A DNA stretch of 58,217 nt, taken from NCBI GenBank assembly GCA_016715885.1, contig JADJXL010000022.1, positions 267,588-325,804 on the forward strand, read 5' to 3'. The position numbers and the translations under genes were made by a program. The notes below the pieces were generated by a model. The model saw only the letters and a list, made by a program, of their open reading frames with translations. It searched no databases and was not told the origin of the DNA. Of the stretch, positions 2,898 through 50,222 are shown piece after piece; the first letter of the stretch is position 1; each line of letters begins with the position of its first letter. This DNA is from Polyangiaceae bacterium (GTDB lineage Bacteria > Myxococcota_A > Polyangia > Polyangiales > Polyangiaceae).

Positions 2898-2942
2898 CGG
2901 CGAGGGTGCGTCGGGAACAACCTCGCGAGTGAGGGGTGGCAA

Positions 2943-23800: not shown

Positions 23801-25827
23801 GTGAGACGGAACGATTCGGGTCGCTCACCGGCGATGGACTCGACGAGGTTGCATTCGAGAAACACCTGCAAGCCCAGGGAATTCCGGTCATCCATTACTT
23901 GTATGCAATCTACAAGCTGGTGGCGCGTTATCATGCAGGCGAACATGCAGATGCGCTCGCCGCAGCCGATCTAGCAGAAGGCTTGATTTGGAGCCGGCTC
24001 TATAGCGTGGCGGATGCCGAGTTTTACTTCTATGCCGCTTTGGCGGTCGCCGCCGCCTATCAAGATGCCACGGAGGAAGCGCGAGCGGGTTTCCGAAAGC
24101 GACTTACGAATTACGAGGATCAACTCCGGCAATGGAGCGAGAGTTGTCCGGACAATTTTCGATCACGGCATCATTTGGTTTCGGCAGAAATCGCGCGTAT
24201 CGATGGCCGGGATCACGACGCCATCGTGCTCTACGACAAGGCGATTCGATTCGCGCGTGAATCGGGATTCGTTCACGTCGAGGGGCTCGCGTGCGAGCTG
24301 GCCGGGGTTTTCTACAACCAGCGCGGCTATGCGCTCTTGCCCGCCGCCAATCTTCGACAAGCACGCAAATGTTACGATCGGTGGGGCGCGAAAGCGAAGG
24401 TCCGGCAGCTCGATACGCTGTATCCGGACCTCGTGGAAGCGCCGCGGCGGGAAAGCTCGCCGATGCCGAGCGCGGATGCCGAGCCCATCGATTCGCTGAC
24501 GGCTGCCAAGGCATCGGCCGCGATTTCGAGTGAAATGTCGCCCGACGAGCTTTTGGCAACGCTCATGCGAATTCTCACCGAACACGCGGGCGCGCAGCGA
24601 GCTTGTTTGCTTTTGCCAACGGCCGAAGGGCTCAGTTTTGCCGCGGAAATCACGGCCGATCATGATGGCGTGCGCGTCGATACCTCACGAAATAGAAATG
24701 CTCCTTCAGCGAACGAGTTTCCCATCTCCGTTGCGCAATACGTGCGGCGAACGCGCGAAAAACTCGTGCTCGACGATGTCGCATCCAACGTGACGTTTGC
24801 AAGCGATCCTTACGTGGCTGCACGTCGTCCCAAGTCGCTTCTATGCGCTCCCATCGTCCGGCGCGGCGAAGTCGCCGGCATCTTGTACTTGGAAAACCGT
24901 TTGGCCCGCGGAGCGTTCACGCCGAAACGACTCTCCTTGCTCGAATTCCTTTCGGCCATTTCACTGGAAAATGCGCTGCTCGCGGCCGATTTGGTTCGCG
25001 AGACGGCGACGCGAACCCGAGCCGAAAAGACCCTCAAAGAAAGCGAAGAGCGCCTCCAAAGGCTCGTGGAAACGGCCAACGTCGTCCCGTGGGAAGCCGA
25101 TCGCATCACGGGCCGGTTCACGTACGTCGGCCCGCAGGTCGTCAAAATGCTCGGCTATCCGCAAGATGCCTGGTATTCGGACCATTTCTTGGGCACGCAC
25201 GTCCATCCGGAGGACCGCGAAAGCACGCTCCTGCACCTCGTCGCTGCGTCTGGCGAAGACGATTTCGATTTTCGCATTCGAGCCGCAGACGGGCGCACGG
25301 TGTGGCTCCACAACGTGGTGAGCGTACGCGGGGGCGATGGAAGCGATACCGTCGGAGGTTTTCTCTTTGACGTCACCGAGCGCAAGGAATCCGAAAGCAC
25401 CCTCAAGGACAAGCTGCGCATCATCGAAGAGCAGCAGACGGCCATTCAAAAATTGTCGACGCCCATCATCGAAGTATGGGAGGGCGTTTTGACGGTCCCG
25501 GTGCTTGGAATCGTCGACGAGCAGCGGGCCGAGCAAATGATGATGACGCTGCTCGATGCGGTGACGCGCACGGGTTGCCAATATACAATCATCGATTTGA
25601 CGGGCGTCGATGCGGTCGATACCGGCACGGCCGATCACCTCATGCGCATCGTCCGCGCCGTGCAACTCCTTGGCGCGCAGAGCATCGTGGTCGGTATTCG
25701 GCCGGAGGTGGCGCAAACGATCGTGTCGATGGGCGTGGACCTATCGTCGATCAGCACGCTGGCGACATTGCGGCAAGCATTGCTGATGTGCATGGGAGGG
25801 CCGCGAGGCGCGCGCAAGCGTGGTTGA
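20815..25827 (+). CDS. Giant multidomain signalling protein: N-lobe-less degenerate protein-kinase C-lobe, AAA_16/STAND P-loop NTPase, long helical (TPR-like) region, GAF, PAS and a C-terminal STAS domain
   Basis: Only the kinase C-lobe is present. HRD is replaced (IHQSIRSDT) and DFG is replaced (ELSG). The Walker A is VTGPSGIGKTALL and the Walker B is VLLLDDLQWAD. A GAF region reads CAPIVRRGEVAGILYLEN. A PAS region reads VWLHNVVSVRGGDG...FLFDVTERK. The STAS domain reads STPIIEVWEGVLTVPVLGIVD...IIDLTGVDAVDT. The track start is GTG 20815; an ATG at 20887 is an alternative. Confidence 0.8.
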   Translation: MVLWLAKCQCTAAPEQRVLFEPVTMPAQSRVDGISPGALTLEQFLRGALAAAEALAKLHQSGIIHQSIRSDTLRIDFEHVTVELSGVQTVAQAEPSALKLPLESLPYIAPEQTGRFDSPIDHRVDLYSLGIVLYERWAAALPFHADDAVGWVHCHVARAPRALIEAASQTPVVVSSIVMKLLAKSPDERYQSARGLALDLERCLSELLTTAHIEPFPLGTRDVWDKLRSAGQMYGRKEELAALRAAVGRASTTREVVLVTGPSGIGKTALLRELQKSSDEKAFFLWGKFEHQRRDIPYTTIGQAFGDLVRQLLALPDKELDAIRQRLVAALGVNAQLVVDLVPQIELVIGKQPPAVVLPAADTQSRFNMTFANFVDVLATSERPIVLLLDDLQWADFGSLDLLQHVLTQPALRNLLMVGVYREEDVGPSHPLDSMLGAVRGAGVTVTPIVVGPLSQAQVVDLVRDLFGCEPSEAKPLASLLWAKTGGNPFFMAQLLGVLHEEKLIRFDAQRWGWRWDIADIESKEITDDLVELVLGKLRRLPEGTLETLEIAASTGNEFSVDLVATLCGKTSEEVRSLLEPALADGILLQRPSGYKFLHDRLVHAAYGLIGEDERTALHLRLGWLLFERTPQDELDGAIFDIVNQLNLGAARVESPHQRRRIAELDLRAGRKAKAAAAARTAAMYLGKGIGLLPEDAWSTEYALAYALHIELAECEFMTGRFEDAERLCATVLEHARTPVDKAGAYRIQLLLATAQMNNAHAIELGRTALRLFGIELPADPTEQDVRSEVAAVRDKLQGTTIESLGRLSAMTDPDTIAAMDILAALYPAAVYVVPNLSQVAVAHMVRLSILHGNAPASAHGYAILGLVLCSRFSEFRDGYLFGKLACDLSQEPRFESYASEALVNFGALTLIWSRPMRESLEILAMGFRSGKNAGKTIYAGSNLLQTAMVSLALGEPLDAVQDAGAFAYEFLTNARFGFLADNARTLQHCARSLRGETERFGSLTGDGLDEVAFEKHLQAQGIPVIHYLYAIYKLVARYHAGEHADALAAADLAEGLIWSRLYSVADAEFYFYAALAVAAAYQDATEEARAGFRKRLTNYEDQLRQWSESCPDNFRSRHHLVSAEIARIDGRDHDAIVLYDKAIRFARESGFVHVEGLACELAGVFYNQRGYALLPAANLRQARKCYDRWGAKAKVRQLDTLYPDLVEAPRRESSPMPSADAEPIDSLTAAKASAAISSEMSPDELLATLMRILTEHAGAQRACLLLPTAEGLSFAAEITADHDGVRVDTSRNRNAPSANEFPISVAQYVRRTREKLVLDDVASNVTFASDPYVAARRPKSLLCAPIVRRGEVAGILYLENRLARGAFTPKRLSLLEFLSAISLENALLAADLVRETATRTRAEKTLKESEERLQRLVETANVVPWEADRITGRFTYVGPQVVKMLGYPQDAWYSDHFLGTHVHPEDRESTLLHLVAASGEDDFDFRIRAADGRTVWLHNVVSVRGGDGSDTVGGFLFDVTERKESESTLKDKLRIIEEQQTAIQKLSTPIIEVWEGVLTVPVLGIVDEQRAEQMMMTLLDAVTRTGCQYTIIDLTGVDAVDTGTADHLMRIVRAVQLLGAQSIVVGIRPEVAQTIVSMGVDLSSISTLATLRQALLMCMGGPRGARKRG

Positions 25828-25848: not shown

Positions 25849-26607
25849 TCAGGTAATGCGAAAACCACCGTCGAGCTGCAAGTTGGCTCCCGTTATGAAC
25901 GCCGCTCGATCCGAACAGAGGAAGAGCACGGCATCAGCAAGCTCGGCCGGGCGGCCCATGCGTTTCATGGGCAGCCTCGCGAAGAGCGCGCCGAGCGCTT
26001 CTTGTGGCAATTGCTGCGCATATTCGGCTGCCATAGCGGTTTCGAATGCCCCGGCGACGATCGCATTGACGCGGATGTTTTTCGCGGCACTCTCCACGGC
26101 AGCCGTACGCGTGAGCGCCTCGAGCCCGGCTTTCGCCGCCGAATACGCGCCAAGGCCGGGCTGCACCGATTGGGATGCGAGCGAGGAGCAATTGACGATG
26201 GCACCTCCTCCACTTGCTGCGATGGCTGGGATTTCGTATTTCATGCAGAAAAATATCGCACGCAGAAATGCAAGATCCCGGTCGAAAGATTCTGCGGTCA
26301 TCTCGACGAGGGATGACGCTCGGAGCGCTCCCCAAGCGTTGTTGTAGGCGTAATCCAAGCGGCCATGGATGGACAAGGTCCGCTCTACGAGCGCCTTGAC
26401 ATCGTCTTCGGATGTCACATCGGCGCGGATGAACGTGGCATCGCCGCCCGTAGCGCGAATGGAACCCTCGACTTCGCGCCCGAGCTCTTCACGGCGTGCC
26501 GTGAAGACGACCTTGGCGCCTTCACGGGCAAACGCTTCGGCCGCGGCCCTTCCCAGCCCCGCGTTTCCACCGGTTATCAGCGCAATCTTTCCCTCGAATT
26601 CACCCAC
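25849..26607 (-). CDS. Short-chain dehydrogenase/reductase (FabG-like 3-oxoacyl reductase family)
   Basis: The cofactor-binding motif is ITGGNAGLGRA and the catalytic motif is YSAAKAG (YxxxK). It lies 120 bp downstream of the NRPS-PKS gene on the same strand. Confidence 0.8.
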   Translation of the reverse strand: MGEFEGKIALITGGNAGLGRAAAEAFAREGAKVVFTARREELGREVEGSIRATGGDATFIRADVTSEDDVKALVERTLSIHGRLDYAYNNAWGALRASSLVEMTAESFDRDLAFLRAIFFCMKYEIPAIAASGGGAIVNCSSLASQSVQPGLGAYSAAKAGLEALTRTAAVESAAKNIRVNAIVAGAFETAMAAEYAQQLPQEALGALFARLPMKRMGRPAELADAVLFLCSDRAAFITGANLQLDGGFRIT

Positions 26608-26727
26608 GATTCACCTCCGCTCAGCAGTTTATCCGGAACGACGACGGCTGTATAGAGCCGTGTCTTGCCATGGATTGGGTGTCATGCATTGGACTGGACG
26701 TACCCACGATTGCCTTGTTCGTCAATG

Positions 26728-29700
26728 TTACGTTCGAGCAGATTCGCCCACGGGTAGCGAGCAGTGCATGTGAATCACGCGCCAGGCTCCTTCGTGTTTT
26801 TCCAGAACCAGGCTCAGGCGAGTATCGTGGTAAATGGCTTGTCGCTCGTCTTGTGCAGACGTTTGTTCAGAATCGAACCGTGCGGTAATGGTGGCAGCAC
26901 GACCACCGGCGAATACGAGAACTTTTGCATCGCGCACGCATGCGCGCAGGTCCACGAGCGATGCCATCTTGCGCTCATAATGTGCCCTGATGCTCATTGA
27001 GCCTTCGAGAATGTCATCGGAGACGCCAATGCTCACGCACGGATGATTCGGGGCAAACATGGCCCCCAATGCAGCCCCATCGCGCATACACATCCACTCG
27101 ACGAATCGATCCAGAAAAGCGCGTAGCTCCGCTTCGTCTTGGTCGAATGTTTGAATTGCTCTGCGGCTGGGGAATGGAGTTGGGATTCGAATACGTCGAG
27201 GCATCTCCGAGGGCGCTTGCAGTTGGACGTGCGAGGACGCATTGGGTTGCGTTGCAGGTTCGTGCGATACCGGGGTCATGGGCGTGGATGTCATTGCAGC
27301 CGGCGAGTCCATGAGGGTCTTGATGCCGTGGACGGTGGGATTCGCCATGAATTGAGCCATCTTGATTTTGCGTCCAGTTCGCAGGTTGAATTCAGCGAGG
27401 AAGTGAACGGCGAGGAGCGAGTCGCCTCCCAGCTCGAAGAAGTTTGCGCCTGGGGGCACTTGCGAAATGCCCAGCATACGCTTCCAAAGATGCTGTGCAA
27501 TCGACGGCGCACTGTCCGCAGCGGTCGTCGACATGGGTATGCGTGACGCCACGGGAGCTTCATCCATCGTGGAAATGGACACTTCGCCATTCGATGCCGA
27601 TGTCAGCGCAGCGAGGTCGTGCCACACGTTTGTTTTGAGCTCCGACGATCGCGTCGGATGCTCGGCGATGATGAGCGCACTGTCTTCGACACGCTGACGA
27701 GCGGGGTCTTTCGGAACGGTTTCGACATTCGCAAACCCGGCGCGCTTCAATTCGCGCTGCCAATCGGAGAGGGTCATCGTCAGCGCACCGCGGGCGCGAA
27801 CGACGTCCCAATAACCTGGCGCCAAACCCCAAACGAGATGGCCCCACGTACCGACGCGCGTCGTTTCGACGCAAACGAGCGCGCCGCCGGGAATGAGCAA
27901 TTCACGCAATTTCACGAGGCTCGAAGGGAGGTCGAGCGCCACGTGCACGGAATCGAGTCCGAGGATGATGTCATAACCTTCGTGGAACCCTTGTTCACTC
28001 GGGGCCCGATTCAGGTCGAAGCGAAGGAATTTCATCCAAGGAATGCGGCGTTTCTTTGCCTCGCGTTCTGCGACGTGAAGGAACGAACGTCCGATGTCGG
28101 TGAAATGGTATTCCACATTTTCACCACGAAGCCGCTCCACCAGGGGCCATGTGAGCCGACCATGTCCCGCGCCGACTTCGAGAATGCGGACTTTCTTGTC
28201 CCGGTGCCGCTTCATGATGTCGACCACGACGTCGCGTGCCAACGCCATGTAGACATGGTAATAAAACGCGGCATTTTCGCGCATGCACTCCTCGTAGAAT
28301 GCATCCGTGCCGTCGGGGTACAAAACGCCGATCGGCTCGATTTCGCCCGTCAGCGCTTCGTCGTAATGCGCGACGCAGTGTTCGAGGAAAAGGGATAGTC
28401 CCAAAAACTTGGGTTCGTCTCGTCGAAACGATACGGCGAGCCCGGCGGATCGCCCCACGCCCTCGCTACGGATCGAAATTGCGTCGGAACCTTGGCGAGT
28501 TGCCATGCCGGCACGTTCGAGCACGCGCACGAGGGAATTGAACATGGGGGTATATTTGGGCAGAATGCCCGTGTCTTTTTGCAGCGCCTCCATGGAACGC
28601 GGTCGTTCGAGGGTATCGCCCAATCGTCGTGCAAAAAAATCGAGCACGAGATGGGCGCAGAGGTTCTCCATTCGAGCCAACAACCCCGGAGCTTCGTCGA
28701 TGGATGTGGCTCCGAGCTCGCGGGTAATTTCGACGGCGCGCACGTCGAGCGGCGCGGGCTCCAAGGGCGGCGCGGCCGCTTGTTCATTGGGTTTGGGCAC
28801 TTTGGGCGGCGCAGCTTCGAGGTTGTAACGCCGCCTTTCGAATGGATACGTGGGCAATGGAATGCGCCGGCGCTTCTCGTGCGCGTAAAACGCTTGCCAA
28901 TCGACGTCCAGCCCGAGCTCCCACAATCGCCCCAATCCGCGAAACAGAGCGGCACACGAAGACTCGGCACGCTTGCGAGCGCTCGGCAATGTGCCCACGA
29001 TTTCGCACGTTTCTCCGTCGAACCGCGGATGCGCCTTGAGCAGCGAGCCGAGCGCGCTGCCCGGACCAACCTCGATGCAAATGGGCGATTCGAGGTCGAA
29101 TAGCGTATCGAAAGCATCGGTCAAGCGCACGGGATTGCAAAGATGATCCGCCCAAGCATCCGCATGGGTCGCCTGGTCGACATTCATGTATTTCCCCGTG
29201 ACGTTTGAAATGATGGGAATGCCGGGTGCGTTCCGCTCGGTGCGGGCCACGTGTGCACGAAAATCGGCGCGGATTCCGTGCATCATGGGTGAATGCGATG
29301 CACGTGAAACACGCACATCGCTGGTTTCGATGCCAGCATTCGTGAGACGAACGCGCACCTTGTCAATGAGCTCGGTGGCTCCGGATAGGACGACGCAATC
29401 GGGAGCATAGGTGGCAATGGCGATGCCGTCACCAAGGAATTGTGTAATCGTTCGCACGTCGGTAAATGCGGTGAGCATGCTGCCGGCGGGGGTGGAGTCC
29501 ATCAATTGGCCACGAGCGACGACGAGGCTGAGCGCGTCACGAAGCGAAAAGACGCCGGCAATGCAGGCTGCGACGTATTCGCCTAGGCTATGGCCGAGCA
29601 TGGCCGCGGGCTTTATGCCCCACGCCATGAGCTGCTTGGCCAACGCGTATTCGATGGCGAACAAGAATGGCTGCGCCCAGCCCATTTCGTCGAGTAGACG

Positions 29701-32700
29701 TTCGTTTTCGGCGCCGCCCGCTAACAATGGCCGGAGATCGAGCCGCGCGTCTTCCCGGACGATGTCGAAACAGCGATCGATCTCGATTCGGAATACCGGC
29801 TCGGCATCGTACAAGTCGCGACCCATTTGGAGATATTGCGCCCCATGGCCGGGAAACAAGAATACCACGGGGCGCGTCGTCGTGGGGACTGCCGGAGCAC
29901 TTGGGCTTGGCGGGACCGAAATCAAGGCGCCAATAGCCCCCATGACGTTGCGACAAACGACCGTCGTTCGATGACGCATGGGCGCTCGGCCCACGGCAAG
30001 TGTATACGCGACGTCCGCCAATTGGGCCGAAGCGTGCGTTCCGAGATAGCCGCGAAGCTTTTGCGAAACGGCTGATAACGTTTCGGGTGTACGTGCCGAG
30101 AGGCATAAGAGTTGGTAGGGCCGGCTTTCGGTAGATGCTTCCAAGGCAGGCGGCTCTTCCAAAACGACGTGTACGTTTGTCCCGCCAATCCCGAGAGCAC
30201 TCACGCCAGCTCGTCGTGGACCGTTTGCGCGCGGCCATGGCCGGGCACGATCGCTCATGAAGAAGGGCGAGGTTTCCAGATTGAGCAATGGATTGGGATT
30301 GCGGTAACCTGGGACCGGTGGAATGGTTGCATGCTCGAGCGCAAGGGCTGCTTTGATGAGGCCGGCAGCTCCAGCGGCAGCGTCCATGTGACCGAGGTTT
30401 GCTTTGAGGGCGCCGAGCGCACAATAACCGCGCCGATCCGTCGATTTGCGATAAGCGCGCGTCAATGCGCGGACTTCGGTCGGATCTCCGAGGCGCGTGC
30501 CGGTACCGTGCGTTTCGACGAATTCGATGGTAGCAGGATCCACGCGCGCCGTTTCACAGGCTTTGGCGACGACTGCGGCCACGCCGTCCTCGCTTGGCGC
30601 CGTGAAGCCAATTTTGTCCGATCCATCGTTGTTCATGGCCGAACCGAGGATGACGGCATGAATGGTGTCACGATCGGCAATGGCGTCCGCAAGTCGTTTC
30701 AGCACGACGATGGCAATGCCGCTCGATTTGACCATTCCGCTCGCATCGGCATCGAAGGGCCGGCAATGGCCATCCGCGGACTCGATACCTCCTTCGACGT
30801 GGAGATGTCCAAAGTCTCGCGGGCTCAATGCGGACAACGACACGCCGCCTGCAATGGCCATGTTGCAATCGCCCGCCAGCAGGCTTTGGCGAGCCATGTG
30901 AATGGCGGAGAGCGATGTGGAGCAAGCCGTTTGGACGACGACCGCGGGACCTTTCAGACCCAGTTTGAACGCCACCCGCGTCGCCAAAAAGTCCGTGGCA
31001 TTCAGCGTTTGCGCACGGTATCGCTCTTGGTCGCTCGATGCAGCGCCGAGCGCCTTCATGACGGGCCCCAGCCAATATCGAGGAATGGCTGCGCCGGCAA
31101 AGACGCCTATTTGGCTCGGATAACGGCCAGGGTCGACGCCCGCATGTTCGAGTGATTCATAGGCACATTCCAGGAAAAGCCGCTGCTGCGGGTCGAGCCA
31201 CGTGGCGTCGGCGTCATTGAAACCGAAAAAGGCTGCATCGAAATGATCCGCATCCTCCAAGACGCCTTCCGCGGGAATGAAATTCGCTTGGCGCACGCGT
31301 GCCGGATCGGCGCCTGCGGCAATGAGGTCCTCGGGATCCATTCTTTGGATCGTTTCGCGCCCTGTACGGACGACCTCCCACAAGTCGTCGGGTCCACGTA
31401 CGCCGGGAGCTCGAATGGCCATACCGACGATGGCAATGGCATCTGCGCGCGCGGGTGCCGGTGCTTTCGCAGGGGCAGCGTCGGTGCTCGGCTTTGGCGT
31501 GGGCTGAAGCTTCAGATTGGGCAACGTCGACAGATGTGTCGCAAGCTTCCGGATCGTGGGCAATCGGAGCATAGTCATCATGTCGATGTCGACGCCGAGT
31601 TGCGTTTGCAATTTTGCCTGCACGCGCGCCATGGCCAAAGAATGGCCACCCAACTCGAAGAACGGCGAATCGATACCGACATCGGATTGCCCCAAAACTT
31701 CCTTCCAAATCGAGGTGACAGCATGTTCCAGCGAGTTTGCGGTCGGAGCAATCACAGGGGCGCGCTCCACCGGCATCGGCAACGATGCTCGATCGATTTT
31801 ACCGCTCGAATTGACGGGCATTCGATCCAACACGACAAACGTAGCCGGTACCATGTATTCCGGCAATCGTTCGCGAAGGTGTTTCTTGAGCGCATCCACG
31901 AGGTCGGAAGGTGCTGGTCGACGTGGTAAGACATATCCTACGAGGCGTGGATCACCTGCAAAGCTCACGACCTGGACGGCAGCCATTTCAATGGCAGGAT
32001 GAAGACCGAGCTCCACTTCGATCTCCCCGAGCTCGACACGATAGCCGCGGAGTTTGATCTGACGATCGGTGCGTCCGAGGTAATCGATTTGGCCATCACC
32101 GCGCCACTTTACGCGATCGCCCGTCTTGTAGAATCGCGTCTCGGCGGCGTTGGGAATGAGGTTTTCTAGGAAGCGATCCCTGGTGAGCTCGGGTCGATTC
32201 AAATATCCTCGCGCGACAACCGGACCACCAATGTAGAGCTCACCGGGTATGCCAATGGGCACGGGATGCATGTGATCATCCAAAATGTAGACGGGAATGT
32301 GATCGAAAGGTCGCCCAATGGAGGGTTTTCCCTCGCCGCGCCGGCAGTCTCCCAGGACGGATACCACCGTCGTTTCGGTTGGTCCATATGCATTGACGAA
32401 GCGTCGACCATGGGCCCACTTGTTCACGAGGGATTCAGGGAGCGCCTCGCCAGCGGTGATGATCGTATGCAGCCGAGGAAGCTCGTCGTGAGGCGTCACG
32501 GCGAGCGCCGATGGCGTCATCGCTACGACATCGATATGCTTTTCCTGAAGCGTTTTCGTGAGATTCGCACCGGGCGCTATCGCATTCGAATCCGTCACGA
32601 CGAGCGTGGCTCCCACGGGCCAGGTCATGGCGAGCTCCCATATCGAGACGTCGAAGGTGAGGGAGAAAAATTGCAGCACGCGTGTTCCTACGCCGAGGCC

Positions 32701-35670
32701 AAACATGGTCTCGAGACCACGGGCCAGGTAATAAAGTCCCCGCCTTTCGACCATGACGCCTTTGGGACGGCCCGTCGATCCGGACGTGTAAATGACGTAC
32801 GCAAGGTGCTCGTGCCCTGCATTGGAAACCGGCCGCGATTCCGCCTGCGCGGCGATCGCCGCAGCTTCGTCGTCGAGCACAATGGTGCGTCCGCCGTATT
32901 CCGGTAAAACGCCCGCATTCTTCCGATTCGTCAGCAAAATCGAAATGGACGCGTCTTCCAGCATGAAACGAAGCCGCTCGCTCGGGTAGCTCGGATCCAG
33001 CGGCACGAACGCTCCGCCCGCTTTGAGCACCCCCAATATCGCCACCATCGCATCGATCGACCGCTCGATGCACAGGCCCACCAATGTATCAGGCTGCACC
33101 CCGAGCGCGCGCAGGTAATGCGCAAGGCGATTGGCACGGACGTCGAGCTCAGCATACGTCAATCGCGTATCACCCTGTTCCACGGCAATCGCCAATGGTG
33201 ACCTATCGACCTGCGCCTCGAACAGCCCCTCGAGCGACACGAATTCTTCTTCGGGCTTCGCCTTGACCCGCGGCCCTTGCCACTCTGCAAGCTGCTGCTC
33301 TTCCGCGCGAGTCAAAATCGCCAAATCCTCGAGGCGCGCCGCCGGATCGCGCACGATGCTCTCCAAGAGAACGCCGAAATGGCCCACCATCCGTTCAATG
33401 GTTTCTTTGGCAAAAAGTTCCGTCTGGTATTCGATATGGCCTACCAATCCAGACGATCGCTGATGCAGCTCCAGATACAAGTCGACCTTGGCCACACCAA
33501 TGTCGATTCGACCAGCATTCCAATTCGGCGTGGCGGCGAGGGGCGCGATGGGCGGCATGAGAATGAAGGTATTGTTGTACAGGGGATTTTCATTTGGGTC
33601 ACGCCTGCCGCCCAGCTCGTTCACGAGCCTATCGAACGGGACGTCCTGATGTTCGCGCGCTGCTTTCAACACGTCGCCCACTTTGGGAAGCAAATCGATG
33701 AACGACATGGCTGCATCGAGCTGCGTGCGCAAAACGAGGTTGTTGTTGAAAAAGCCGATCAGCCCCTCGAATTCGGGACGCGGACGACCCGCCGCGGCGG
33801 ACCCCACGATGATGTCGCTTTGCCCCGAATAGCGGAAGAGCAGCGTTTTCCATGCCGCGAGGAGCGTCGTGAAAAGCGTGACGCCCGTGCGTTGCGCGAT
33901 CGCGCGGAGTTTGGTGACGAGCTCGGAAGAAACCGCCACGGCCGCGCGTGCGCCTCGCCCCGTCGGCGACTGCGGACGTGGGAAATCGGTGGGCAAAGGC
34001 AGATCGGAAAAACCCGCCATGTGCGACTTCCAATAAGCCAACTTCGGCGCGAGTGCCGCTTCGCTCAGCCACATTCGTTGCCACGCGGCAAAATCCGCAT
34101 AATGAAGCGATGGCTCGGGCAAGGGAGACGGTTTGCCCAGGGAAAACGCCGCATAAAGCGCCGAGAGCTCGGGGAGAAATACATTGAAAAAGGATACGCC
34201 ATCGACGACGATGTGGTGCGCCGTGATGACGAGGCGCGCTTCGGCGTCGCCAAATCGAATGAGCAGCGCACGCACGAGCGGACCTTGCTCGAGATGAAAT
34301 GGTCTCCGCGCATGCTCGACGGCAGCGCGTGCGGCTTCCGATTCCCGAATGTCCTCGGGCCACGTGCCGGCATCGACCGAATCCAAATGAAATGGCCGCG
34401 GCGGCAAGATTTTTTGCTTGGGTGCTCCGTCGATAACGGCAAATACCGTACGCCATGCTTCGTGACGGCGTACGATTTCCGTGAGCGCCCGCTCGAGCAC
34501 CGTGGCATCCACGGCGCCATCCATTCGAATGATGATGGGCTCGTTGTAAACGATCGTGCCCGGAAAAAGCCGATGGACGAACCACAAGCGCTCTTGCGCG
34601 AACGATACATCCAGCTTCTCATCGCGACGCGCAGGCATGACGGGCGGACCAGGTAGCACTTTCGTGCTCGCCTTCGTGACGGGGGCGATGACGCTTGGCG
34701 CCGCATTTTCTGCAACGGTTGGTCCTACAAATGGCGCCAGCGCAATGTGACGTGTTGGAACGGGGGGAATCGTTATCCTTCGTAGGCTTGGCGGCGGCTC
34801 CTGCCATTCACATTGCGCGATGAACTCGACGACCGTTTTACAGAGCACGCTCTCCGCGTCCACCAGACCCTCGATGGCGTCGAAATGGTTTCTGCCTCGT
34901 TGAATGAATAGGCGCCCGGGGAGCCCATTGCGTTGCCAAAGGGTGAGGTATTCGTTCGATTGTCGTTTGAATTCGGCAGACTCGTCGTCACCGACGCTGA
35001 CGAGCAGGGGCGGACCCATATCGGGCACGTGGAAAATGGGACTTTGATCGAGGACGACTTCGTGATTGAGCCCGAGGTTTTTTTGCATCGACGTGTGTCG
35101 AAGTGGACGCAAGTCAAAAATGCCGCTGATGGGAATCGCGCCCTTGATGATGTCTTGCGGCAAACCATAATCCTCGTGCCATCGCGTGGACAAAAGCATG
35201 GCGACCTGATGGCCGCCCGCTGAATGACCAACCACGAAGATGCGGTCCGGATCTCCGTGAAATGCGCGAATGTTTTCGTAAATCCATTTCATCGCCGAGC
35301 GGCTTTGACGCGTGATGTCGGCTATGGTGACCGCCGGGCAGAGCGAATGGTTCGTGAGGACGACCGTCAGGCCATTGGCCCGCAATCCGCGCGCCACGAA
35401 GCTGAATTCCTTGCTGCTGAAGGACTGCCAATAGCCGCCGTGAATGAATACCACCACCGGCGCATTGGGCTGAGGTGCCGGCGAAATGTCGACTGTTTCG
35501 TCAGCTCCGGCACCAAACCGTATATCGAGTGACCAAGGAAGGTCATGACGCGCCTTGACGCTTTCGTCTGCATACCAGCGAAGATATCGCTGTGCGTCAT
35601 GCACGAGGTGCGTCGGGTCGTATTCTTTATCAAGTGTAGTCGACGTTTCGAACTGGCGGGATCTGATCAT
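26728..35670 (-). CDS. Hybrid NRPS-PKS megasynthase (2980 aa): alpha/beta-hydrolase, C, A, PCP, KS, AT, MT, ACP and an NTF2/SnoaL-like C-terminal domain
   Basis: - Abhydrolase: N-terminal VVVFIHGGYW plus VVGHSAGGH nucleophile elbow.
- C domain: HHIVVDGVS.
- A domain: LAYVIYTSGSTGRPKGV, NAYGPTETTV, GELYIGG, YKTGDRVKW, GRTDRQIKLRGYRVELGEIE, NSSGKIDR.
- PCP: FFELGGHSLAM.
- KS: TACSTSL, VETHGTGTRLGDPTE, ANLGH.
- AT: GHSLGEY plus RASH.
- MT: ILEVGAGHGRLTWPL.
- ACP: FFELGGDSLLAV.
- Terminal domain: NTF2-like (about 170 aa).
- No KR, DH or TE domain. GGGAGG lies 6 nt before the ATG. Confidence 0.9.
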   Translation of the reverse strand: MIRSRQFETSTTLDKEYDPTHLVHDAQRYLRWYADESVKARHDLPWSLDIRFGAGADETVDISPAPQPNAPVVVFIHGGYWQSFSSKEFSFVARGLRANGLTVVLTNHSLCPAVTIADITRQSRSAMKWIYENIRAFHGDPDRIFVVGHSAGGHQVAMLLSTRWHEDYGLPQDIIKGAIPISGIFDLRPLRHTSMQKNLGLNHEVVLDQSPIFHVPDMGPPLLVSVGDDESAEFKRQSNEYLTLWQRNGLPGRLFIQRGRNHFDAIEGLVDAESVLCKTVVEFIAQCEWQEPPPSLRRITIPPVPTRHIALAPFVGPTVAENAAPSVIAPVTKASTKVLPGPPVMPARRDEKLDVSFAQERLWFVHRLFPGTIVYNEPIIIRMDGAVDATVLERALTEIVRRHEAWRTVFAVIDGAPKQKILPPRPFHLDSVDAGTWPEDIRESEAARAAVEHARRPFHLEQGPLVRALLIRFGDAEARLVITAHHIVVDGVSFFNVFLPELSALYAAFSLGKPSPLPEPSLHYADFAAWQRMWLSEAALAPKLAYWKSHMAGFSDLPLPTDFPRPQSPTGRGARAAVAVSSELVTKLRAIAQRTGVTLFTTLLAAWKTLLFRYSGQSDIIVGSAAAGRPRPEFEGLIGFFNNNLVLRTQLDAAMSFIDLLPKVGDVLKAAREHQDVPFDRLVNELGGRRDPNENPLYNNTFILMPPIAPLAATPNWNAGRIDIGVAKVDLYLELHQRSSGLVGHIEYQTELFAKETIERMVGHFGVLLESIVRDPAARLEDLAILTRAEEQQLAEWQGPRVKAKPEEEFVSLEGLFEAQVDRSPLAIAVEQGDTRLTYAELDVRANRLAHYLRALGVQPDTLVGLCIERSIDAMVAILGVLKAGGAFVPLDPSYPSERLRFMLEDASISILLTNRKNAGVLPEYGGRTIVLDDEAAAIAAQAESRPVSNAGHEHLAYVIYTSGSTGRPKGVMVERRGLYYLARGLETMFGLGVGTRVLQFFSLTFDVSIWELAMTWPVGATLVVTDSNAIAPGANLTKTLQEKHIDVVAMTPSALAVTPHDELPRLHTIITAGEALPESLVNKWAHGRRFVNAYGPTETTVVSVLGDCRRGEGKPSIGRPFDHIPVYILDDHMHPVPIGIPGELYIGGPVVARGYLNRPELTRDRFLENLIPNAAETRFYKTGDRVKWRGDGQIDYLGRTDRQIKLRGYRVELGEIEVELGLHPAIEMAAVQVVSFAGDPRLVGYVLPRRPAPSDLVDALKKHLRERLPEYMVPATFVVLDRMPVNSSGKIDRASLPMPVERAPVIAPTANSLEHAVTSIWKEVLGQSDVGIDSPFFELGGHSLAMARVQAKLQTQLGVDIDMMTMLRLPTIRKLATHLSTLPNLKLQPTPKPSTDAAPAKAPAPARADAIAIVGMAIRAPGVRGPDDLWEVVRTGRETIQRMDPEDLIAAGADPARVRQANFIPAEGVLEDADHFDAAFFGFNDADATWLDPQQRLFLECAYESLEHAGVDPGRYPSQIGVFAGAAIPRYWLGPVMKALGAASSDQERYRAQTLNATDFLATRVAFKLGLKGPAVVVQTACSTSLSAIHMARQSLLAGDCNMAIAGGVSLSALSPRDFGHLHVEGGIESADGHCRPFDADASGMVKSSGIAIVVLKRLADAIADRDTIHAVILGSAMNNDGSDKIGFTAPSEDGVAAVVAKACETARVDPATIEFVETHGTGTRLGDPTEVRALTRAYRKSTDRRGYCALGALKANLGHMDAAAGAAGLIKAALALEHATIPPVPGYRNPNPLLNLETSPFFMSDRARPWPRANGPRRAGVSALGIGGTNVHVVLEEPPALEASTESRPYQLLCLSARTPETLSAVSQKLRGYLGTHASAQLADVAYTLAVGRAPMRHRTTVVCRNVMGAIGALISVPPSPSAPAVPTTTRPVVFLFPGHGAQYLQMGRDLYDAEPVFRIEIDRCFDIVREDARLDLRPLLAGGAENERLLDEMGWAQPFLFAIEYALAKQLMAWGIKPAAMLGHSLGEYVAACIAGVFSLRDALSLVVARGQLMDSTPAGSMLTAFTDVRTITQFLGDGIAIATYAPDCVVLSGATELIDKVRVRLTNAGIETSDVRVSRASHSPMMHGIRADFRAHVARTERNAPGIPIISNVTGKYMNVDQATHADAWADHLCNPVRLTDAFDTLFDLESPICIEVGPGSALGSLLKAHPRFDGETCEIVGTLPSARKRAESSCAALFRGLGRLWELGLDVDWQAFYAHEKRRRIPLPTYPFERRRYNLEAAPPKVPKPNEQAAAPPLEPAPLDVRAVEITRELGATSIDEAPGLLARMENLCAHLVLDFFARRLGDTLERPRSMEALQKDTGILPKYTPMFNSLVRVLERAGMATRQGSDAISIRSEGVGRSAGLAVSFRRDEPKFLGLSLFLEHCVAHYDEALTGEIEPIGVLYPDGTDAFYEECMRENAAFYYHVYMALARDVVVDIMKRHRDKKVRILEVGAGHGRLTWPLVERLRGENVEYHFTDIGRSFLHVAEREAKKRRIPWMKFLRFDLNRAPSEQGFHEGYDIILGLDSVHVALDLPSSLVKLRELLIPGGALVCVETTRVGTWGHLVWGLAPGYWDVVRARGALTMTLSDWQRELKRAGFANVETVPKDPARQRVEDSALIIAEHPTRSSELKTNVWHDLAALTSASNGEVSISTMDEAPVASRIPMSTTAADSAPSIAQHLWKRMLGISQVPPGANFFELGGDSLLAVHFLAEFNLRTGRKIKMAQFMANPTVHGIKTLMDSPAAMTSTPMTPVSHEPATQPNASSHVQLQAPSEMPRRIRIPTPFPSRRAIQTFDQDEAELRAFLDRFVEWMCMRDGAALGAMFAPNHPCVSIGVSDDILEGSMSIRAHYERKMASLVDLRACVRDAKVLVFAGGRAATITARFDSEQTSAQDERQAIYHDTRLSLVLEKHEGAWRVIHMHCSLPVGESART

Positions 35671-36022
35671 GTCGTCCTCCCTCGCGAGTTACCATCGAAT
35701 ACATGGTACCATGACAGACCAGTCCTTTTGTGGACGGAAATGCGTCGAAATCGTGTTGAGAGCACGTGAATGCGAATACTGCTTTGACATCCAACGATGC
35801 CTGCAGGTGGTTTGGCTGTCCAATGCTGTCTACGTTTTGAGCACAAACGATCGAGGCAGCAGTTTTCCGACAATGGATGAGAGCGCCAATGTTTTGACGA
35901 TCTGCGCTTGGGTGACCTCATTGACCCGAGGTTTAACGCAAAGTGGCAAAGACGCAGGGACGCAAAGACGTGGTCTATGCGCTGACCACGAGCAGTACTC
36001 CGCCACTTCGTTGATTGAGCTT

Positions 36023-36126
36023 CGGGAGCTGCTTGATTTCTCGGCACCGCGGCACCCCGAACTCGCCGCCTTCGGCGGCTCGGACAGCGGGGCCCCCGCC
36101 GCAGCGCCGAGAAATCAAGCAGCTCC
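36023..36126. repeat. Perfect 22-bp inverted repeat (gggagctgcttgatttctcggc / gccgagaaatcaagcagctccc) with a 60-nt spacer that holds a nested hairpin (cgccgccttcggcggc)
   Basis: The arms are at 36023-36044 and 36105-36126 and are exact reverse complements. The structure lies 37 bp beyond the peroxidase stop and about 350 bp upstream of the NRPS-PKS start. Confidence 0.7.
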
Positions 36127-36162
36127 CAAAGCCTCGCTTGATACGATTTGGGAGAGTCGTGT

Positions 36163-36918
36163 TCAGAGCACGCGCATGAATGCGACGAGGTCGCTCTTTT
36201 CCTGATCGGAGAGTTTCAGCTCGAGCACCAAATTGAAGAATTCCACGGTGTCTTCGAGCGTGAGGAGGCGGCCGTCGTGCAGATACGGTGGCGAATCCTT
36301 GATGCCTCGGAGCGGGAAGCTTTTCGTCGGGCCTTCGGCAACAGTGAGACGCCCATTGATGAGCGTTGGTTGGTAGAACCGTTCCACATGGAGATCGTGC
36401 ATGAAATTATCCGAATAGATCGGCGGTGGATGGCAATTGGCGCATTGCCCTTTGCCAAAGAAAACCTCCTGACCTCGAAGCTCTTCGGGCGTGGCGAGGC
36501 GTGGATCGAGTCGTTTGTCGGTGATGCGAAGCTTCGGCGCGGGCGGGAAGTCGAGTATCTCTTGGAATTCGGCCATCGCATGGACTTCGCTTCCTCGTTC
36601 GAGGAAATTGACACCCTTCTTCTGAGCGATCACGATATCCCCATCGAAATACGCCGCACGTTGCTCGAATTCAGTGAAATCCTCGATGGTGCGGAGTGCC
36701 CGTTGTGAACCAAAGAGCCGCTGCTGGTTCACGCCTCTTAGCGATGGCGTATCGATGCGGCGCCGATGCGATTGGGGGCGTTTGTCGCCGACGAGGTGAA
36801 ATGCTGCATTCGTATGACCATTCGCATGGCAATCGAAGCAGCTCACGCCGGGGCTGGGCTTTTCGGACCTACGATCGTCGGTCAGATTGAATTGCTGCTG
36901 CGCGAATTGCGATACCAA
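36163..36918 (-). CDS. Di-haem cytochrome c peroxidase (CCP/MauG family), catalytic part
   Basis: Two CxxCH haem motifs are present (CFDCHANGH and CANCHPPP). Its 5' end overlaps the next ORF by 50 nt in another frame, which suggests one frameshifted gene. Confidence 0.7.
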   Translation of the reverse strand: MVSQFAQQQFNLTDDRRSEKPSPGVSCFDCHANGHTNAAFHLVGDKRPQSHRRRIDTPSLRGVNQQRLFGSQRALRTIEDFTEFEQRAAYFDGDIVIAQKKGVNFLERGSEVHAMAEFQEILDFPPAPKLRITDKRLDPRLATPEELRGQEVFFGKGQCANCHPPPIYSDNFMHDLHVERFYQPTLINGRLTVAEGPTKSFPLRGIKDSPPYLHDGRLLTLEDTVEFFNLVLELKLSDQEKSDLVAFMRVL

Positions 36919-37657
36919 GAGGCGCAGCCCTTCGAGTTGTTTCCGGATTCAGGATTCCGTCGAACAACGCAAAAAAGTTTTGCCGCGTGACGAGCTGGCC
37001 GCGGGACACGTCCCCGAGGTCCGGCCTGGTCGTGAGAAAGATGGGCGGAGGAAACTCCGCAATGAAATGCTCGGGGAAGTCGAATTCCACGTCGAATCGT
37101 TCGAGGTTCAGGTTTTCCTGACGCTTGATCTCCGCGATGTGCGTCTTTGGGAAAACCATTCCGCCCTCGCCGTGTTTTGCGTGAGGCAATGGCATAAATC
37201 CCGCTGGAAAAAGGTTCTTGTCGCGAATCTCCGCCGGCGTCATACCGGCGAGCGACGTCCACGTCATTCCTTGCGGCAGCTTCACGCGCACGCCTTGTTG
37301 TACGGCCTTGCCTCGCGACATCGTGACGCCACGTGCCGGCTTGTTGGCGAGGTCGTACCTCGAGGCGAGCAAATCCAATTGCCTTTTCATCACGGCGGGT
37401 TTTTCCGCGGATAGACGCGCCATGATCGCGGCAAAAGGTTCTTCGATGGCGACGGGGGCATAACTCGTCTTCGAGTCTCCCGGCGCAAGCAAACCCAGGC
37501 GCGGATCGGAAACGATACCTCCAGCAGGCGCCGCTGCCGCCGACGTACCTCGCGCCGGCTGCGGTTCAGCGGCGGCATTGGGACTGAGTCCTGCGGAACA
37601 AGCTCCCACGGCGCCCACCGTCAGGGCGAGCCACAACGTATTCAGATGCAATCGCAT
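36869..37657 (-). CDS. Secreted N-terminal extension of the cytochrome c peroxidase locus
   Basis: A signal peptide reads LALTVGAVGACSA. FPPPIFLTT and KTHIAEIKRQENLNLERFD resemble N-terminal CCP regions. The ORF ends inside the downstream haem-domain ORF. Confidence 0.5.
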   Translation of the reverse strand: MRLHLNTLWLALTVGAVGACSAGLSPNAAAEPQPARGTSAAAAPAGGIVSDPRLGLLAPGDSKTSYAPVAIEEPFAAIMARLSAEKPAVMKRQLDLLASRYDLANKPARGVTMSRGKAVQQGVRVKLPQGMTWTSLAGMTPAEIRDKNLFPAGFMPLPHAKHGEGGMVFPKTHIAEIKRQENLNLERFDVEFDFPEHFIAEFPPPIFLTTRPDLGDVSRGQLVTRQNFFALFDGILNPETTRRAAPLGIAIRAAAIQSDRRS

Positions 37658-37821
37658 CGAGCCTCCTCTCGTGAATGACGAGACGAAAGCTTATTGCTTA
37701 ACAGCGAGGTCGTGGCGCGGATGAATCGGTCATTCGATACGCGACAAACCCGCCGCGCGTAGGTCGTTTTACCGAGGACCCATGGGGAAACGAAGGAAGT
37801 GTTTGTCTGGAACGTTTGCCG

Positions 37822-39108
37822 TCAATTCGGAATCGTCAACGCTTCGCGCAATTCGCCCTCGAGCTCGTTCAGGGCTGGTTCTCCCAATCCAGGCGGCGCA
37901 AATAATTGAAGATGAATCCGCCCTCGCAATCCAAATGCGACCATGGTCGGCACCGGAATCCCTTTGACGTTCGGCCCGACCGCGCGCATGTCGACGATAT
38001 CGTCGACGAGCGGCCCGAGGCCTTGATCGAGTTTTCCCACGTTGGTGAAAATGAATCCGCGGCTGATGGGCAAATCGACGAGCACCTGTTGGAATGCCGG
38101 CGCGAGCCGTCGCAGGATTCCATGCGGCAATGGCCCCGCGAGCAGCGTTGGCAAAAGCAAAAACGCCGGCCCAACGAGGCTCCGCCGGTGCTGTGCCGTG
38201 ATGGCGCTCACGGCCTTCACGGCATCGACGATGTTTTGCGTGGCCGAGCGTGGAACGATCGTGGTCAAGATGGATGATGCATTCGTGGTGGATAGGTGTG
38301 CCGAGCGTGAGTATCGCCGAAGGTCCATCGTGTAAAGCACGGCGACGGGCCCTTTGCTGGATCGCTTTGCCGCAATCATGGCAATGGCGGCCATGAGCAA
38401 ATCATTGACCCGCACATGCATGCCGCAGCGGGCCTCGAGCGCTTCGATGGTCGACGCTTCGAGCACGATTTGTCTCGACAATGGTCTGGCCGAGCCACTC
38501 TGCGGATAAGGCCGTTCGCGCGGGGCTGCGGACAAAACGCGAAGCGGCTGGAGCAGGACGGTGAACATATCGCGGCCGAGAATGGGCAATTGGCGCAGGG
38601 AAAGCCCATTCAGCGCGCGCCGCAAATGACGCCTGGGCTCCACGGGCAAAGCCGGGCGCACTCCATAAAGATGAGCGCCCAGCACGTGCCCGACGGCCGC
38701 CATGCCCGCACCATCCATGGCCAAATGCGATAAACTCACGATGAGCCGACAGCCAAAGGGCGCCGGCAACACGACGACTCGAAGAGGCCGCACGCGTGTT
38801 GGATCGAGCGAGCGTTCGGTCCACATTTGCGTGTCGCTCTCCAAGTCGGCCGCGGCACCCACGTGAACCATGTCGGAAATGGGGCCATGCACGCGAACCC
38901 AGCGATCCCGAAAAAAGTGGGGTTCATAGACGCATCCGAGCACGGGAAAAGCCGCGACGGTCGCTTGCACCGCCCGCTCGATGTCGTCGCGCGAAAAGCA
39001 GCGGCGAAGATCGATGACTCCGTGCACGCACAGATCGCCATAACGATCCGCCGACCCATGAAGGCCCACGTCCGCGATGCGGGCGCGAAATTGTTCGTTT
39101 CGACGCAA
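37822..39108 (-). CDS. Stand-alone condensation-domain-like / WS-DGAT-like acyltransferase
   Basis: SHLAMDGAG is a variant of the HHxxxDG acyltransferase motif. At 428 aa it is the size of a free-standing C domain. It is on the same strand as the NRPS-PKS, upstream of it. Confidence 0.5.
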   Translation of the reverse strand: MRRNEQFRARIADVGLHGSADRYGDLCVHGVIDLRRCFSRDDIERAVQATVAAFPVLGCVYEPHFFRDRWVRVHGPISDMVHVGAAADLESDTQMWTERSLDPTRVRPLRVVVLPAPFGCRLIVSLSHLAMDGAGMAAVGHVLGAHLYGVRPALPVEPRRHLRRALNGLSLRQLPILGRDMFTVLLQPLRVLSAAPRERPYPQSGSARPLSRQIVLEASTIEALEARCGMHVRVNDLLMAAIAMIAAKRSSKGPVAVLYTMDLRRYSRSAHLSTTNASSILTTIVPRSATQNIVDAVKAVSAITAQHRRSLVGPAFLLLPTLLAGPLPHGILRRLAPAFQQVLVDLPISRGFIFTNVGKLDQGLGPLVDDIVDMRAVGPNVKGIPVPTMVAFGLRGRIHLQLFAPPGLGEPALNELEGELREALTIPN

Positions 39109-39128: not shown

Positions 39129-39779
39129 CTATTGATTCACTTGTCCTGCGAGCGCATTCATCAATGCTTTTTCTTCTTCGATCAATCGTTCGATTTTCTG
39201 GCGTGTGGAGGCCACTACCTGCTCGACGGGCGGATCTTCATCCGGGTTGTGGTACGCGCTCAGAATGCCGAGCGACGTGATCCATTCCAGTTCGTCGAAG
39301 CCCGCGCCCACTTTGCGTAAAAAGTCGGCGAGGACGAGTGTCAAGAGCTTGTAATGACCTTTGTAAGGCAATCCGAGCGAGCGGATGGGGGCGTCGCTGC
39401 TGAGCCATAACGACGACGTCACGGCGAGCGCCGTCGCGGCGGCCGCGGGCTCTTCCGCAAGGATTTCGACGACATCGGCGATCATGGTCAGGGCGCTCGG
39501 ATCACGCAGCGCAACCATTCCTTTGCCCTCGAAGTGCCGACCTTCGATGACATTCGGCACGACGGTTGCGCGCAGTGCTGCTTGTCCTTCGTGGTTTTCC
39601 CAGATGGGTGCGATCTGGATGCCGGACGATTGCGTTTCCGTTCGCAGGTTCAGCGTGTGAAGCAGGATCGCTCGCGCGTCGTGCATCAAGTCGTCGGTGT
39701 CCGGGAGCGCGTAGTCATCGGGAAGCTCGAGAAACGCGCGGCCGCTGGTCGTGTCGAAGTCCATGGCGCCCTCTAACAT
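39129..39779 (-). CDS. Hypothetical acidic protein
   Basis: A 216-aa ORF that lies 20 bp upstream of the condensation-like gene. No recognised motif. Confidence 0.4.
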
Positions 39780-41296: not shown

Positions 41297-41461
41297 GGCG
41301 AAGACCTCCGAGCGGTACGGCATCGCCCTTTACGCTCGTGTCCGAGCGGCTGCAAGGGTTACGTGCGGTTCGAGCGAAAGAGGCTTTGGAGCACGTGGGC
41401 TCGCCTGTAAAGTTTTGCAAAACCCCTCGCGCAGTGTGGGCGACGTGTTATTTGTACCCTC

Positions 41462-48497: not shown

Positions 48498-50222
<1,725 letters not shown>

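Follow-up and report, generated by a model that had tools for sequence, protein, structure and literature searches.

A candidate derived member of a coralinone-layout NRPS-PKS family from a Polyangiaceae bacterium, with a fused N-terminal serine hydrolase, a terminal NTF2-like domain and no thioesterase

We analyzed a 58,217-nt stretch of a Polyangiaceae metagenome-assembled genome (MAG; contig JADJXL010000022.1, positions 267,588 to 325,804), hereafter called the window, in which a single gene encodes a hybrid of nonribosomal peptide synthetase (NRPS) and polyketide synthase (PKS). The locus is an intact, uncharacterised biosynthetic gene. Its best overall explanation, to which we give a probability of roughly 55%, is that of a functional, derived NRPS-PKS of the layout known from the coralinone synthase CorA, which would receive a donor in trans, release its chain without a thioesterase (TE) and yield an N-heterocyclic signal. 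Judged by domain content and phylogeny, the gene is a derived member of its family, having lost the first adenylation-thiolation (A-T) module, gained an N-terminal hydrolase and lost the TE.

The megasynthase gene occupies 26728..35670 on the minus strand as a single uninterrupted open reading frame (ORF) of 2980 aa, and its product is 100% identical to an NCBI protein (P0001) from an assembly named 'MAG: Polyangiaceae bacterium'. Pfam and NCBIfam placed nine domains in it, all on the minus strand. An N-terminal serine hydrolase of the arylformamidase-like HGGYW subfamily (34831..35634, aa 13-280) is followed by a condensation (C) domain (33289..34617, aa 352-794) with HHIVVDG at 485, an adenylation (A; AMP-binding) domain (31798..33222, aa 817-1291) with Lys1291, and a peptidyl carrier protein (PCP; PP-binding) with Ser1344 (31531..31722, aa 1317-1380). 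The PKS part consists of a ketosynthase (KS; 30310..31443, aa 1410-1787) with Cys1583/His1721/His1761, an acyltransferase (AT; 28987..29865, aa 1936-2228), a C-methyltransferase (MT; 27664..28596, aa ~2359-2669, with the Pfam match at ~2480-2650) with EVGAGHG at 2498, His2576 and Glu2602, and a terminal carrier protein (27316..27507, aa 2722-2785) with Ser2751. The latter has a PCP-like motif, FFELGGDSLLAV, which is kept family-wide. The C-terminal NTF2-like domain (SnoaL_3/DUF4440) spans 26746..27138 (aa 2845-2975; Pfam SnoaL_3 2850-2974). The catalytic motifs are complete in the hydrolase, C, A, both carrier proteins, KS, AT and MT, and the unassigned stretches 233-351 and 2790-2845 are short or low-complexity linkers.

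At E<=0.01, Pfam found no match in the megasynthase to Thioesterase (PF00975), NAD_binding_4 (the terminal reductase, R), ketoreductase (KR), dehydratase (DH) or enoylreductase (ER). Only ~230 residues follow the last carrier Ser in the window protein, compared with 426-605 in TE-bearing relatives. An earlier sequence-only reading of the window had arrived at this domain order and had reported the lack of TE, R and KR, and both statements are borne out. It had also named, as an outcome that would overturn it, a hydrolase encoded by a separate gene after reanalysis of the start site. This is ruled out: no stop codon lies between the hydrolase and the C domain, and the same fusion occurs in four other independent assemblies (P0002, P0003, P0005 and P0006), so it is neither an assembly artefact nor a start-site error.

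A separate read-out of the Stachelhaus positions of the A domain gave DVWAIAAVVK, the code previously extracted by hand, and the large hydrophobic or aromatic pocket deduced from it holds; the AT motifs GHSLGE (Ser2028) and RASH (2123) were reproduced as well. Codes in the family resemble DGW[V/T/M/I]IAAVAK, with the Tyr-type DASTIAAVCK in the basal member P0051. A literature search for the A-domain codes returned no match. RASH or RAGH is present in the AT domains of 15/15 family members examined, which is neither the HAFH of malonyl-specific nor the YASH of methylmalonyl-specific enzymes. As the A, KS, AT and MT domains and both carrier proteins are intact, the enzyme can load a bulky, probably aromatic, amino acid.

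The MT lies between the AT and the carrier protein, and its best matches among solved structures were CurJ (6.5e-32) and DisA (3.3e-24), followed by AprA MT2, PksCT and LovB. His2576 and Glu2602 align with the His-Glu dyad of C-methyltransferases, and no entry named O-methyltransferase matched below E=0.0028. By these alignments, the domain is a C-methyltransferase of the CurJ/LovB type and O-methylation is unlikely. Of the O- or C-methylation envisaged by the first reading, only the latter part thus stands.

The C domain matched the elongation C domains of Txo2, Txo1 and TycC at E-77 to E-66, in contrast to E-16 to E-18 for the solved starter C domains of RzmA (7c1h) and CDA-C1 (4jn3). It is therefore, in terms of sequence similarity, of elongation (LCL-like) rather than starter type. 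It is also among the best-conserved domains of the protein, with 62-66% identity to the Polyangium members and 96% to P0002. This strong conservation argues that the domain is still used, even though neither the gene nor the 58-kb window encodes a donor module. The short aminoacyl-ketide proposed earlier as the product omits the donor that an elongation-type C domain would take, and in this respect the proposal falls short.

To place the synthase, we compared it with its relatives. P0002, P0003, P0005 and P0006 are 81%, 66%, 57% and 54% identical to the window protein, respectively. P0002, P0003 and P0006 have the window layout, and P0005 combines the N-terminal hydrolase with a TE. Polyangium proteins such as P0013 are ordered C-A-PCP-KS-AT-MT-acyl carrier protein (ACP)-TE-NTF2, and P0054 is without MT and TE. 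A longer order, A-T-C-A-T-KS-AT-cMT-ACP-TE-NTF2 (cMT, C-methyltransferase), was found in P0051, in the locus L016 of Nannocystis exedens and in L015, the second copy of Polyangium sp. y55x31. When the species genomes of GTDB were scanned with a carrier-protein motif as the query, an NTF2 domain behind such synthases was seen only in Polyangium and Nannocystis exedens; the Polyangium carriers were P. fumosum, sp. y55x31 (twice), sp. 15x6 and one MAG.

In a neighbour-joining tree of ~1770 aligned core positions (bootstrap of 100), the A-T-first forms are basal and all C-first forms make up one clade (100/100). The hydrolase forms are derived: P0001-3 group at 100/100, P0005 and P0006 at 100/100, and the hydrolase group joins the N-terminally truncated P0038 at 68/100. 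The TE is missing from P0001-3, P0006, L011 and P0054, all inside the C-first clade. The most economical history read from this tree is that the first module was lost once and the TE at least four times; the hydrolase was probably gained once. On the same grounds, TE-NTF2 is the ancestral arrangement and the TE of the window protein is missing by secondary loss. The NTF2 domain therefore would not have originated as a thioester-cleaving domain. Repeated TE losses that all postdate the loss of module 1 are in keeping with a chain whose free or differently substituted amine can bring about its own release. We also considered a rule by which members with an MT would retain a TE or a hydrolase; L011 is a possible exception, a locus with an MT and no TE whose reading frame runs off the contig start.

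L015, L016 and P0051 share their A-T-first order with CorA, the synthase of Corallococcus exiguus SDU70 (A-T-C-A-T-KS-AT-ACP-TE; Zhu et al., ACS Cent Sci 2024, PMC10979478). The closest listed homologues of CorA and of the NTF2-family protein encoded beside it are WP_171422662.1 and WP_171422661.1, respectively. The corA gene alone gives a dipeptidyl beta-keto acid, which spontaneously decarboxylates, cyclises and is oxidised to the 5-methyl-pyrazinone coralinone, a morphogen promoting myxobacterial cell aggregation (PMC10979478). The same study reported 110 cor-like clusters, with cMT, KR or nMT variants in Sorangium, Chondromyces, Nannocystis and Polyangium, and defined them by domains for two amino acids (A-T-C-A-T), one PKS elongation (KS-AT-ACP) that comes directly behind the second of these and is without a full reductive loop, and a terminal or stand-alone TE (PMC10979478). 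L015, L016 and P0051 carry the two amino-acid domains, and the window protein has one A and one PCP; its KS-AT-cMT-carrier part is a single elongation module without a full reductive loop, and it has no TE. We found no identical characterised cluster. The earlier statement that no characterised cluster has this layout is correct to that extent, but the gene is not an orphan, as it derives from a family of CorA layout.

The N-terminal domain matched Pfam Abhydrolase_3/BD-FAE at 67-232 and NCBIfam HaHSL_fam over 13-280. Its key residues, HGGYW at 77-81, Ser150, Glu230 and His262, are conserved in 5/5 fused copies and in free-standing homologues. The latter are a very large set of proteins of ~290 aa, which are 50-58% identical to the domain over 93-97% of the length. 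These comparisons indicate that the domain is a complete HGGYW-type serine hydrolase of a widespread free-standing type. A BD-FAE hydrolase encoded beyond the kinase in Polyangium sp. 15x6 was examined as an unfused counterpart and rejected, since its identity is a mere 24% over 144 residues and its motif reads HGGCW instead of HGGYW.

The NTF2-like domain scored 41.4 bits against PF13474 (SnoaL_3), for which the curated cutoff is 22. Its AF2 model (pLDDT, the predicted local distance difference test, 93.5) is an alpha+beta cone, and Foldseek aligned it to NTF2-like structures with probability 1.00 and template-modelling (TM) scores of 0.7-0.83, in agreement with the fold assigned by the sequence-only reading. 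The top fold matches were CaMKII-association-domain-like proteins and CaMKII hubs, followed by SAV_4671, SgcJ, Aln2 and ActVI-ORFA. PDB sequence matches were insignificant (E>=0.06), and the invariant residues A, R, W, H and S (the R/W/HxHxS set) are superfamily-wide. The L011 copy has a weak Pfam match to CaMKII_AD. A word-index search with the domain alone matched one fragment, and 1.84 billion representative proteins, searched with its profile, gave 11 matches below 1e-30, mostly C-terminal fragments. In hhalign comparisons, the profile of the fused domain matched the free-standing DUF4440 protein of L004 weakly (probability 22%) and the SnoaL_2 protein of L002 not at all, and the names and gene contexts of the best free-standing NTF2 matches were uninformative. 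The gene adjoining corA encodes an NTF2-family protein and is a plausible unfused counterpart of the fused domain; free-standing NTF2-type genes also flank L002 and L004.

A comparison of P0001 with P0002 (locus L001) revealed that the 81% overall identity is unevenly distributed. The hydrolase (98%), C (96%), AT (90%), KS (86%) and MT (83%) are close, whereas A (72%), PCP (68%), the terminal carrier (59%) and above all NTF2 (31%) are divergent. The A-PCP and carrier-NTF2 segments thus look as if they had been exchanged or had evolved fast together. As NTF2 and A have diverged jointly, the NTF2 domain seems to vary with the choice of substrate and may see the variable part of the product.

From these domains, we infer the product and the release step of the window synthase. 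One amino-acid module followed by one KS-AT-cMT-carrier module without reduction leads to a carrier-bound gamma-amino-alpha-methyl-beta-ketoacyl thioester: a bulky amino acid can be loaded, extended once with a malonyl-type unit and methylated at the alpha-carbon. The donor joined by the C domain would arrive in trans and be a second aminoacyl or an acyl group; alternatively, the domain would act on the PCP-like terminal carrier. The chain would then leave without a canonical TE, through hydrolysis by the Ser150 hydrolase and/or cyclisation aided by the NTF2 or C domain. The NTF2 domain had been regarded as the only plausible release catalyst in cis; its fold is supported, but it is not the sole candidate, because the Ser150 hydrolase and the C domain qualify as well. 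The freed beta-keto acid or ketone might close to a small N-heterocycle, either a 5-alkyl-pyrazinone or pyrazine by the logic of coralinone or a 3-methyl-tetramate by lactamisation. Such a product would be a signalling-type metabolite, tied to the large regulator encoded convergently with the synthase (described below).

Several observations weigh against this scheme. No second A-T, other NRPS or PKS, phosphopantetheinyl transferase (PPTase) or MbtH gene is present in the 58-kb window. The hydrolase is not demonstrably a TE substitute, because the hydrolase-less P0054 has also lost the TE and the N-terminus of L011 is off the contig. As the conserved residues of the NTF2 domain are superfamily-wide, none of them can be named as a catalytic site. 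Moreover, without a second amino-acid module and a TE, the window protein lies outside the published cor-like definition, and the relationship of its family to coralinone synthase is drawn from architecture, taxonomy and the NTF2 neighbour and gene content, not from direct alignment.

Four other explanations were considered. The NTF2 domain could be structural, a C-terminal dimerisation or oligomerisation hub of a KS-containing megasynthase, with release left to the hydrolase, to the C domain or to spontaneous reaction. The CaMKII hubs at the top of the fold matches, the weak CaMKII_AD match of the L011 copy, the superfamily-wide nature of the invariant residues and the ancestral position of NTF2 behind a TE all fit such a hub. 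However, the coralinone cluster, L002 and L004 have separate NTF2-type genes beside the synthase, which is unexpected for a tether, and NTF2 diverges jointly with A between P0001 and P0002, against 83-98% identity in the hydrolase, C, KS, AT and MT. We regard a purely structural role as conceivable but on balance improbable. Alternatively, the enzyme could be a lipo- or acyl-tetramate synthase, whose C domain N-acylates the aminoacyl-PCP from acyl-CoA or acyl-ACP before lactamisation to an N-acyl-3-methyl-tetramic acid. Reutericyclin provides a precedent, as its C-A-T plus KS-T-TE logic gives N-acyl tetramates. An intact and conserved C domain in first position, with no donor in cis and no NRPS gene nearby, accords with this proposal, and so does a TE that is repeatedly dispensable among the C-first forms, in line with a cyclisation that releases the chain by itself. 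It is made unlikely by the C domain, which matches elongation domains far better than starter domains, and by the descent of the family from forms with an aminoacyl donor in cis.

The remaining two explanations are less probable still. In a kynurenine-coupled pathway, the N-terminal domain would be a true kynurenine formamidase making kynurenine or a related aryl-amine amino acid for the A domain. The domain has the HGGYW motif and the Ser-acid-His triad of such enzymes and matches the Drosophila kynurenine formamidase 4e11 at 2e-20; JGI labels close free-standing homologues 'arylformamidase' (NCBI calls them 'alpha/beta hydrolase'), and the A-domain pocket is large. Yet the lipase 9n8r (5.6e-28) and the esterase-like 2pbl rank ahead of the formamidase among the PDB sequence matches, and no tryptophan or indoleamine dioxygenase (TDO/IDO) or kynureninase gene is present in the window or beside the two free-standing homologues whose surroundings were inspected, neither of which lies in a kynurenine-pathway context. 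Nor do the A-domain codes differ according to whether a hydrolase is present: the hydrolase-less P0054 has DVWAIAGVVK, and the hydrolase-less P0024 (DGGVIAVVAK) resembles P0003 (DGGVIAAVAK). The specific formamidase reading is thus unsupported by both gene context and codes, and we consider it quite improbable. Finally, the gene might be a decaying relic, inactive since the loss of its loading module and TE. It does lack A1-T1 and the TE, both of them ancestral, and the adjoining di-haem gene is frameshifted. Against decay, the 8.9-kb ORF is intact with every catalytic motif present from the hydrolase to the terminal carrier, the same layout persists across lineages that are 54-81% identical, and the C domain is still 96% identical to that of P0002, so that a relic is hardly credible. 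The functional, coralinone-layout synthase with a trans donor and TE-free release remains our preferred explanation.

The only neighbour conserved across the family is encoded convergently at 20815..25827 on the plus strand. This 1670-aa protein contains the C-lobe of a kinase without the N-lobe, followed by AAA_16/STAND, TPR, GAF, PAS and STAS domains, and is a candidate regulator or sensor. It has IIHQSIRSDT where HRDxKxxN is expected, with HQS for HRD, and is likely a pseudokinase. Orthologues with 62-63% identity occupy the same convergent position in Polyangium sp. 15x6, L015, L001, L003 and L006. A convergent ORF of 1656-1658 aa, as compared by length and position, is found there in P. 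fumosum and beside L013, the first y55x31 copy. With these two included, a large convergent gene of this kind accompanies the synthase in at least 7 loci, among them both paralogous copies of y55x31. In L002 and L007 a different Pkinase-AAA_16 protein takes this place, and Nannocystis has none. Two tandem hybrid histidine kinases, each with GAF, HisKA, HATPase and two or three receiver domains, are encoded at window 42-5048 (+), and a comparable one is found in Polyangium sp. 15x6 at L005 6545-9409, upstream of its synthase.

The other genes next to the synthase vary between loci. A classical short-chain dehydrogenase/reductase (SDR) is encoded at 25849..26607 on the minus strand, 120 bp downstream of the synthase. 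Its distance and strand are as first described, and the role of a trans-KR ascribed to it is possible but unsupported, because the gene is not conserved: an SDR occupies this position only in the window and in the 81% relative, a zinc-type medium-chain dehydrogenase/reductase (MDR) in two other loci and nothing in three. It may be a lineage-specific accessory. Over L002 10849-12535, L006 17444-20008 and L004 12381-14145, the genes downstream of the synthase differ: L002 and L006 have a zinc-type MDR alcohol dehydrogenase, L002 also a SnoaL_2 protein, L004 a DUF4440 protein and a PapA_C acyltransferase, and L006 a vanadium-chloroperoxidase-like protein.

Upstream of the synthase, a secreted di-haem protein with weak MauG/MbnH-type matches is encoded at 36163..37657 (minus strand). 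A frameshift at a short A run, near 36869-36918, breaks the gene into overlapping ORFs, 36163..36918 and 36869..37657; it is either a consensus error of the MAG or the mark of a pseudogene. Farther upstream lies a 428-aa ORF with HLAMDGAG (37822..39108, minus strand), for which Pfam (at E<=10), NCBIfam and a PDB sequence search gave no match and the single-sequence model reached a pLDDT of 34. Its 'condensation-like' label therefore depends on one motif, and a comparison with the PapA_C acyltransferase next to P0005 found no similarity beyond that motif. The sequence-only reading had drawn both genes into the pathway. The two CXXCH motifs of the former and the HLAMDGAG of the latter are present as reported, but both genes are absent upstream of the 66% relative, and their membership is unsupported.

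Farther away, a 516-aa protein encoded at window 39773-41323 (-) has long G-x-y repeats of collagen type (Pfam Collagen 1.5e-26) behind an N-terminus resembling a signal peptide; two copies of a Cys-containing module of ~130 aa come next. Two putative ORFs on opposite strands, 46116-47183 (-) and 47156-48742 (+), overlap, and both match Peptidase_S9/alpha-beta-hydrolase profiles. Scans for promoters and terminators between the genes scored no better than chance, and Rfam and tRNA scans of the window gave no matches.

The locus offers good prospects of a new small molecule, though not of a novel type of system. It also draws the attention of genome mining to a single-gene cluster that is conserved in Polyangium and related MAGs and is uncharacterised. 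The family forms a natural series, with or without the first module, the TE and the hydrolase, always with NTF2 and nearly always with a large sensor-type regulator. This series bears on two questions, namely how beta-keto thioesters exit without a TE and what the recurrent NTF2 proteins do in such clusters. It also offers a candidate synthase-sensor pair, in which the large regulator is a testable candidate sensor of the product. A bolder and rather doubtful extension is that the synthase and the pseudokinase-STAND-GAF-PAS-STAS protein constitute a signal-synthase/receptor pair, a LuxI/LuxR-like module of Polyangiaceae that is duplicated as a pair in Polyangium sp. y55x31, and that the fused NTF2 with the C domain or hydrolase is an undescribed TE-independent device for off-loading and cyclising gamma-amino-beta-keto thioesters. 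If this pairing were true, the regulator would represent a candidate receptor class for morphogens of the coralinone type. Before these pyrazinones, no small-molecule morphogen had been shown to drive the aggregation of myxobacteria, and their receptor is not known (PMC10979478).

Parts of the window synthase resemble known enzymes outside the coralinone pathway. The HGGYW esterases and formamidases 4e11, 2pbl and 9n8r have in common with the N-terminal domain the alpha/beta-hydrolase fold, the HGGYW oxyanion motif, the GHSAGG nucleophile elbow and an acid-His pair; the window copy differs in being fused to the N-terminus of an NRPS-PKS and in having no kynurenine-pathway context. SgcJ (4ovm), Aln2 (6p7l) and ActVI-ORFA (5bka), all from polyketide pathways, share the alpha+beta cone of the NTF2 domain at a TM of ~0.7. 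They are 15-22% identical to it with no shared catalytic residues nameable, and the window domain is covalently attached as the C-terminal domain of a modular synthase. Terminal KS-AT-cMT-ACP-TE modules after an NRPS module occur in the epoxomicin/eponemycin pathways and in TubF of tubulysin. As in the window enzyme, an amino-acid thioester is extended there by one malonyl unit that is alpha-C-methylated by an embedded CurJ/LovB-type C-MT. In contrast to those modules, the window synthase is without reductive loop and TE, and its NTF2 tail and N-terminal hydrolase have no counterpart there; nor does an acyl-CoA-dehydrogenase-like epoxyketone enzyme, as in the epoxyketone pathways, lie next to it.

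The comparison with CorA shows differences and likenesses alike. The window protein has no first A-T module and no TE, and it has an added N-terminal serine hydrolase and C-MT. NTF2 is a separate gene beside corA and is fused to the synthase in the window family. Unlike the coralinone cluster, the locus has the pseudokinase-STAND-GAF-PAS-STAS neighbour, and no corB-type Do-family protease is encoded near the synthase in the window. On the other hand, the basal L015, L016 and P0051 retain the CorA order in full, adding only the cMT and the fused NTF2. Both CorA and the window synthase are NRPS-PKS enzymes encoded by a single gene, in which exactly one ketide extension follows an amino-acid module and a reductive loop is missing, and both belong to a myxobacterial setting with signalling-type biology.

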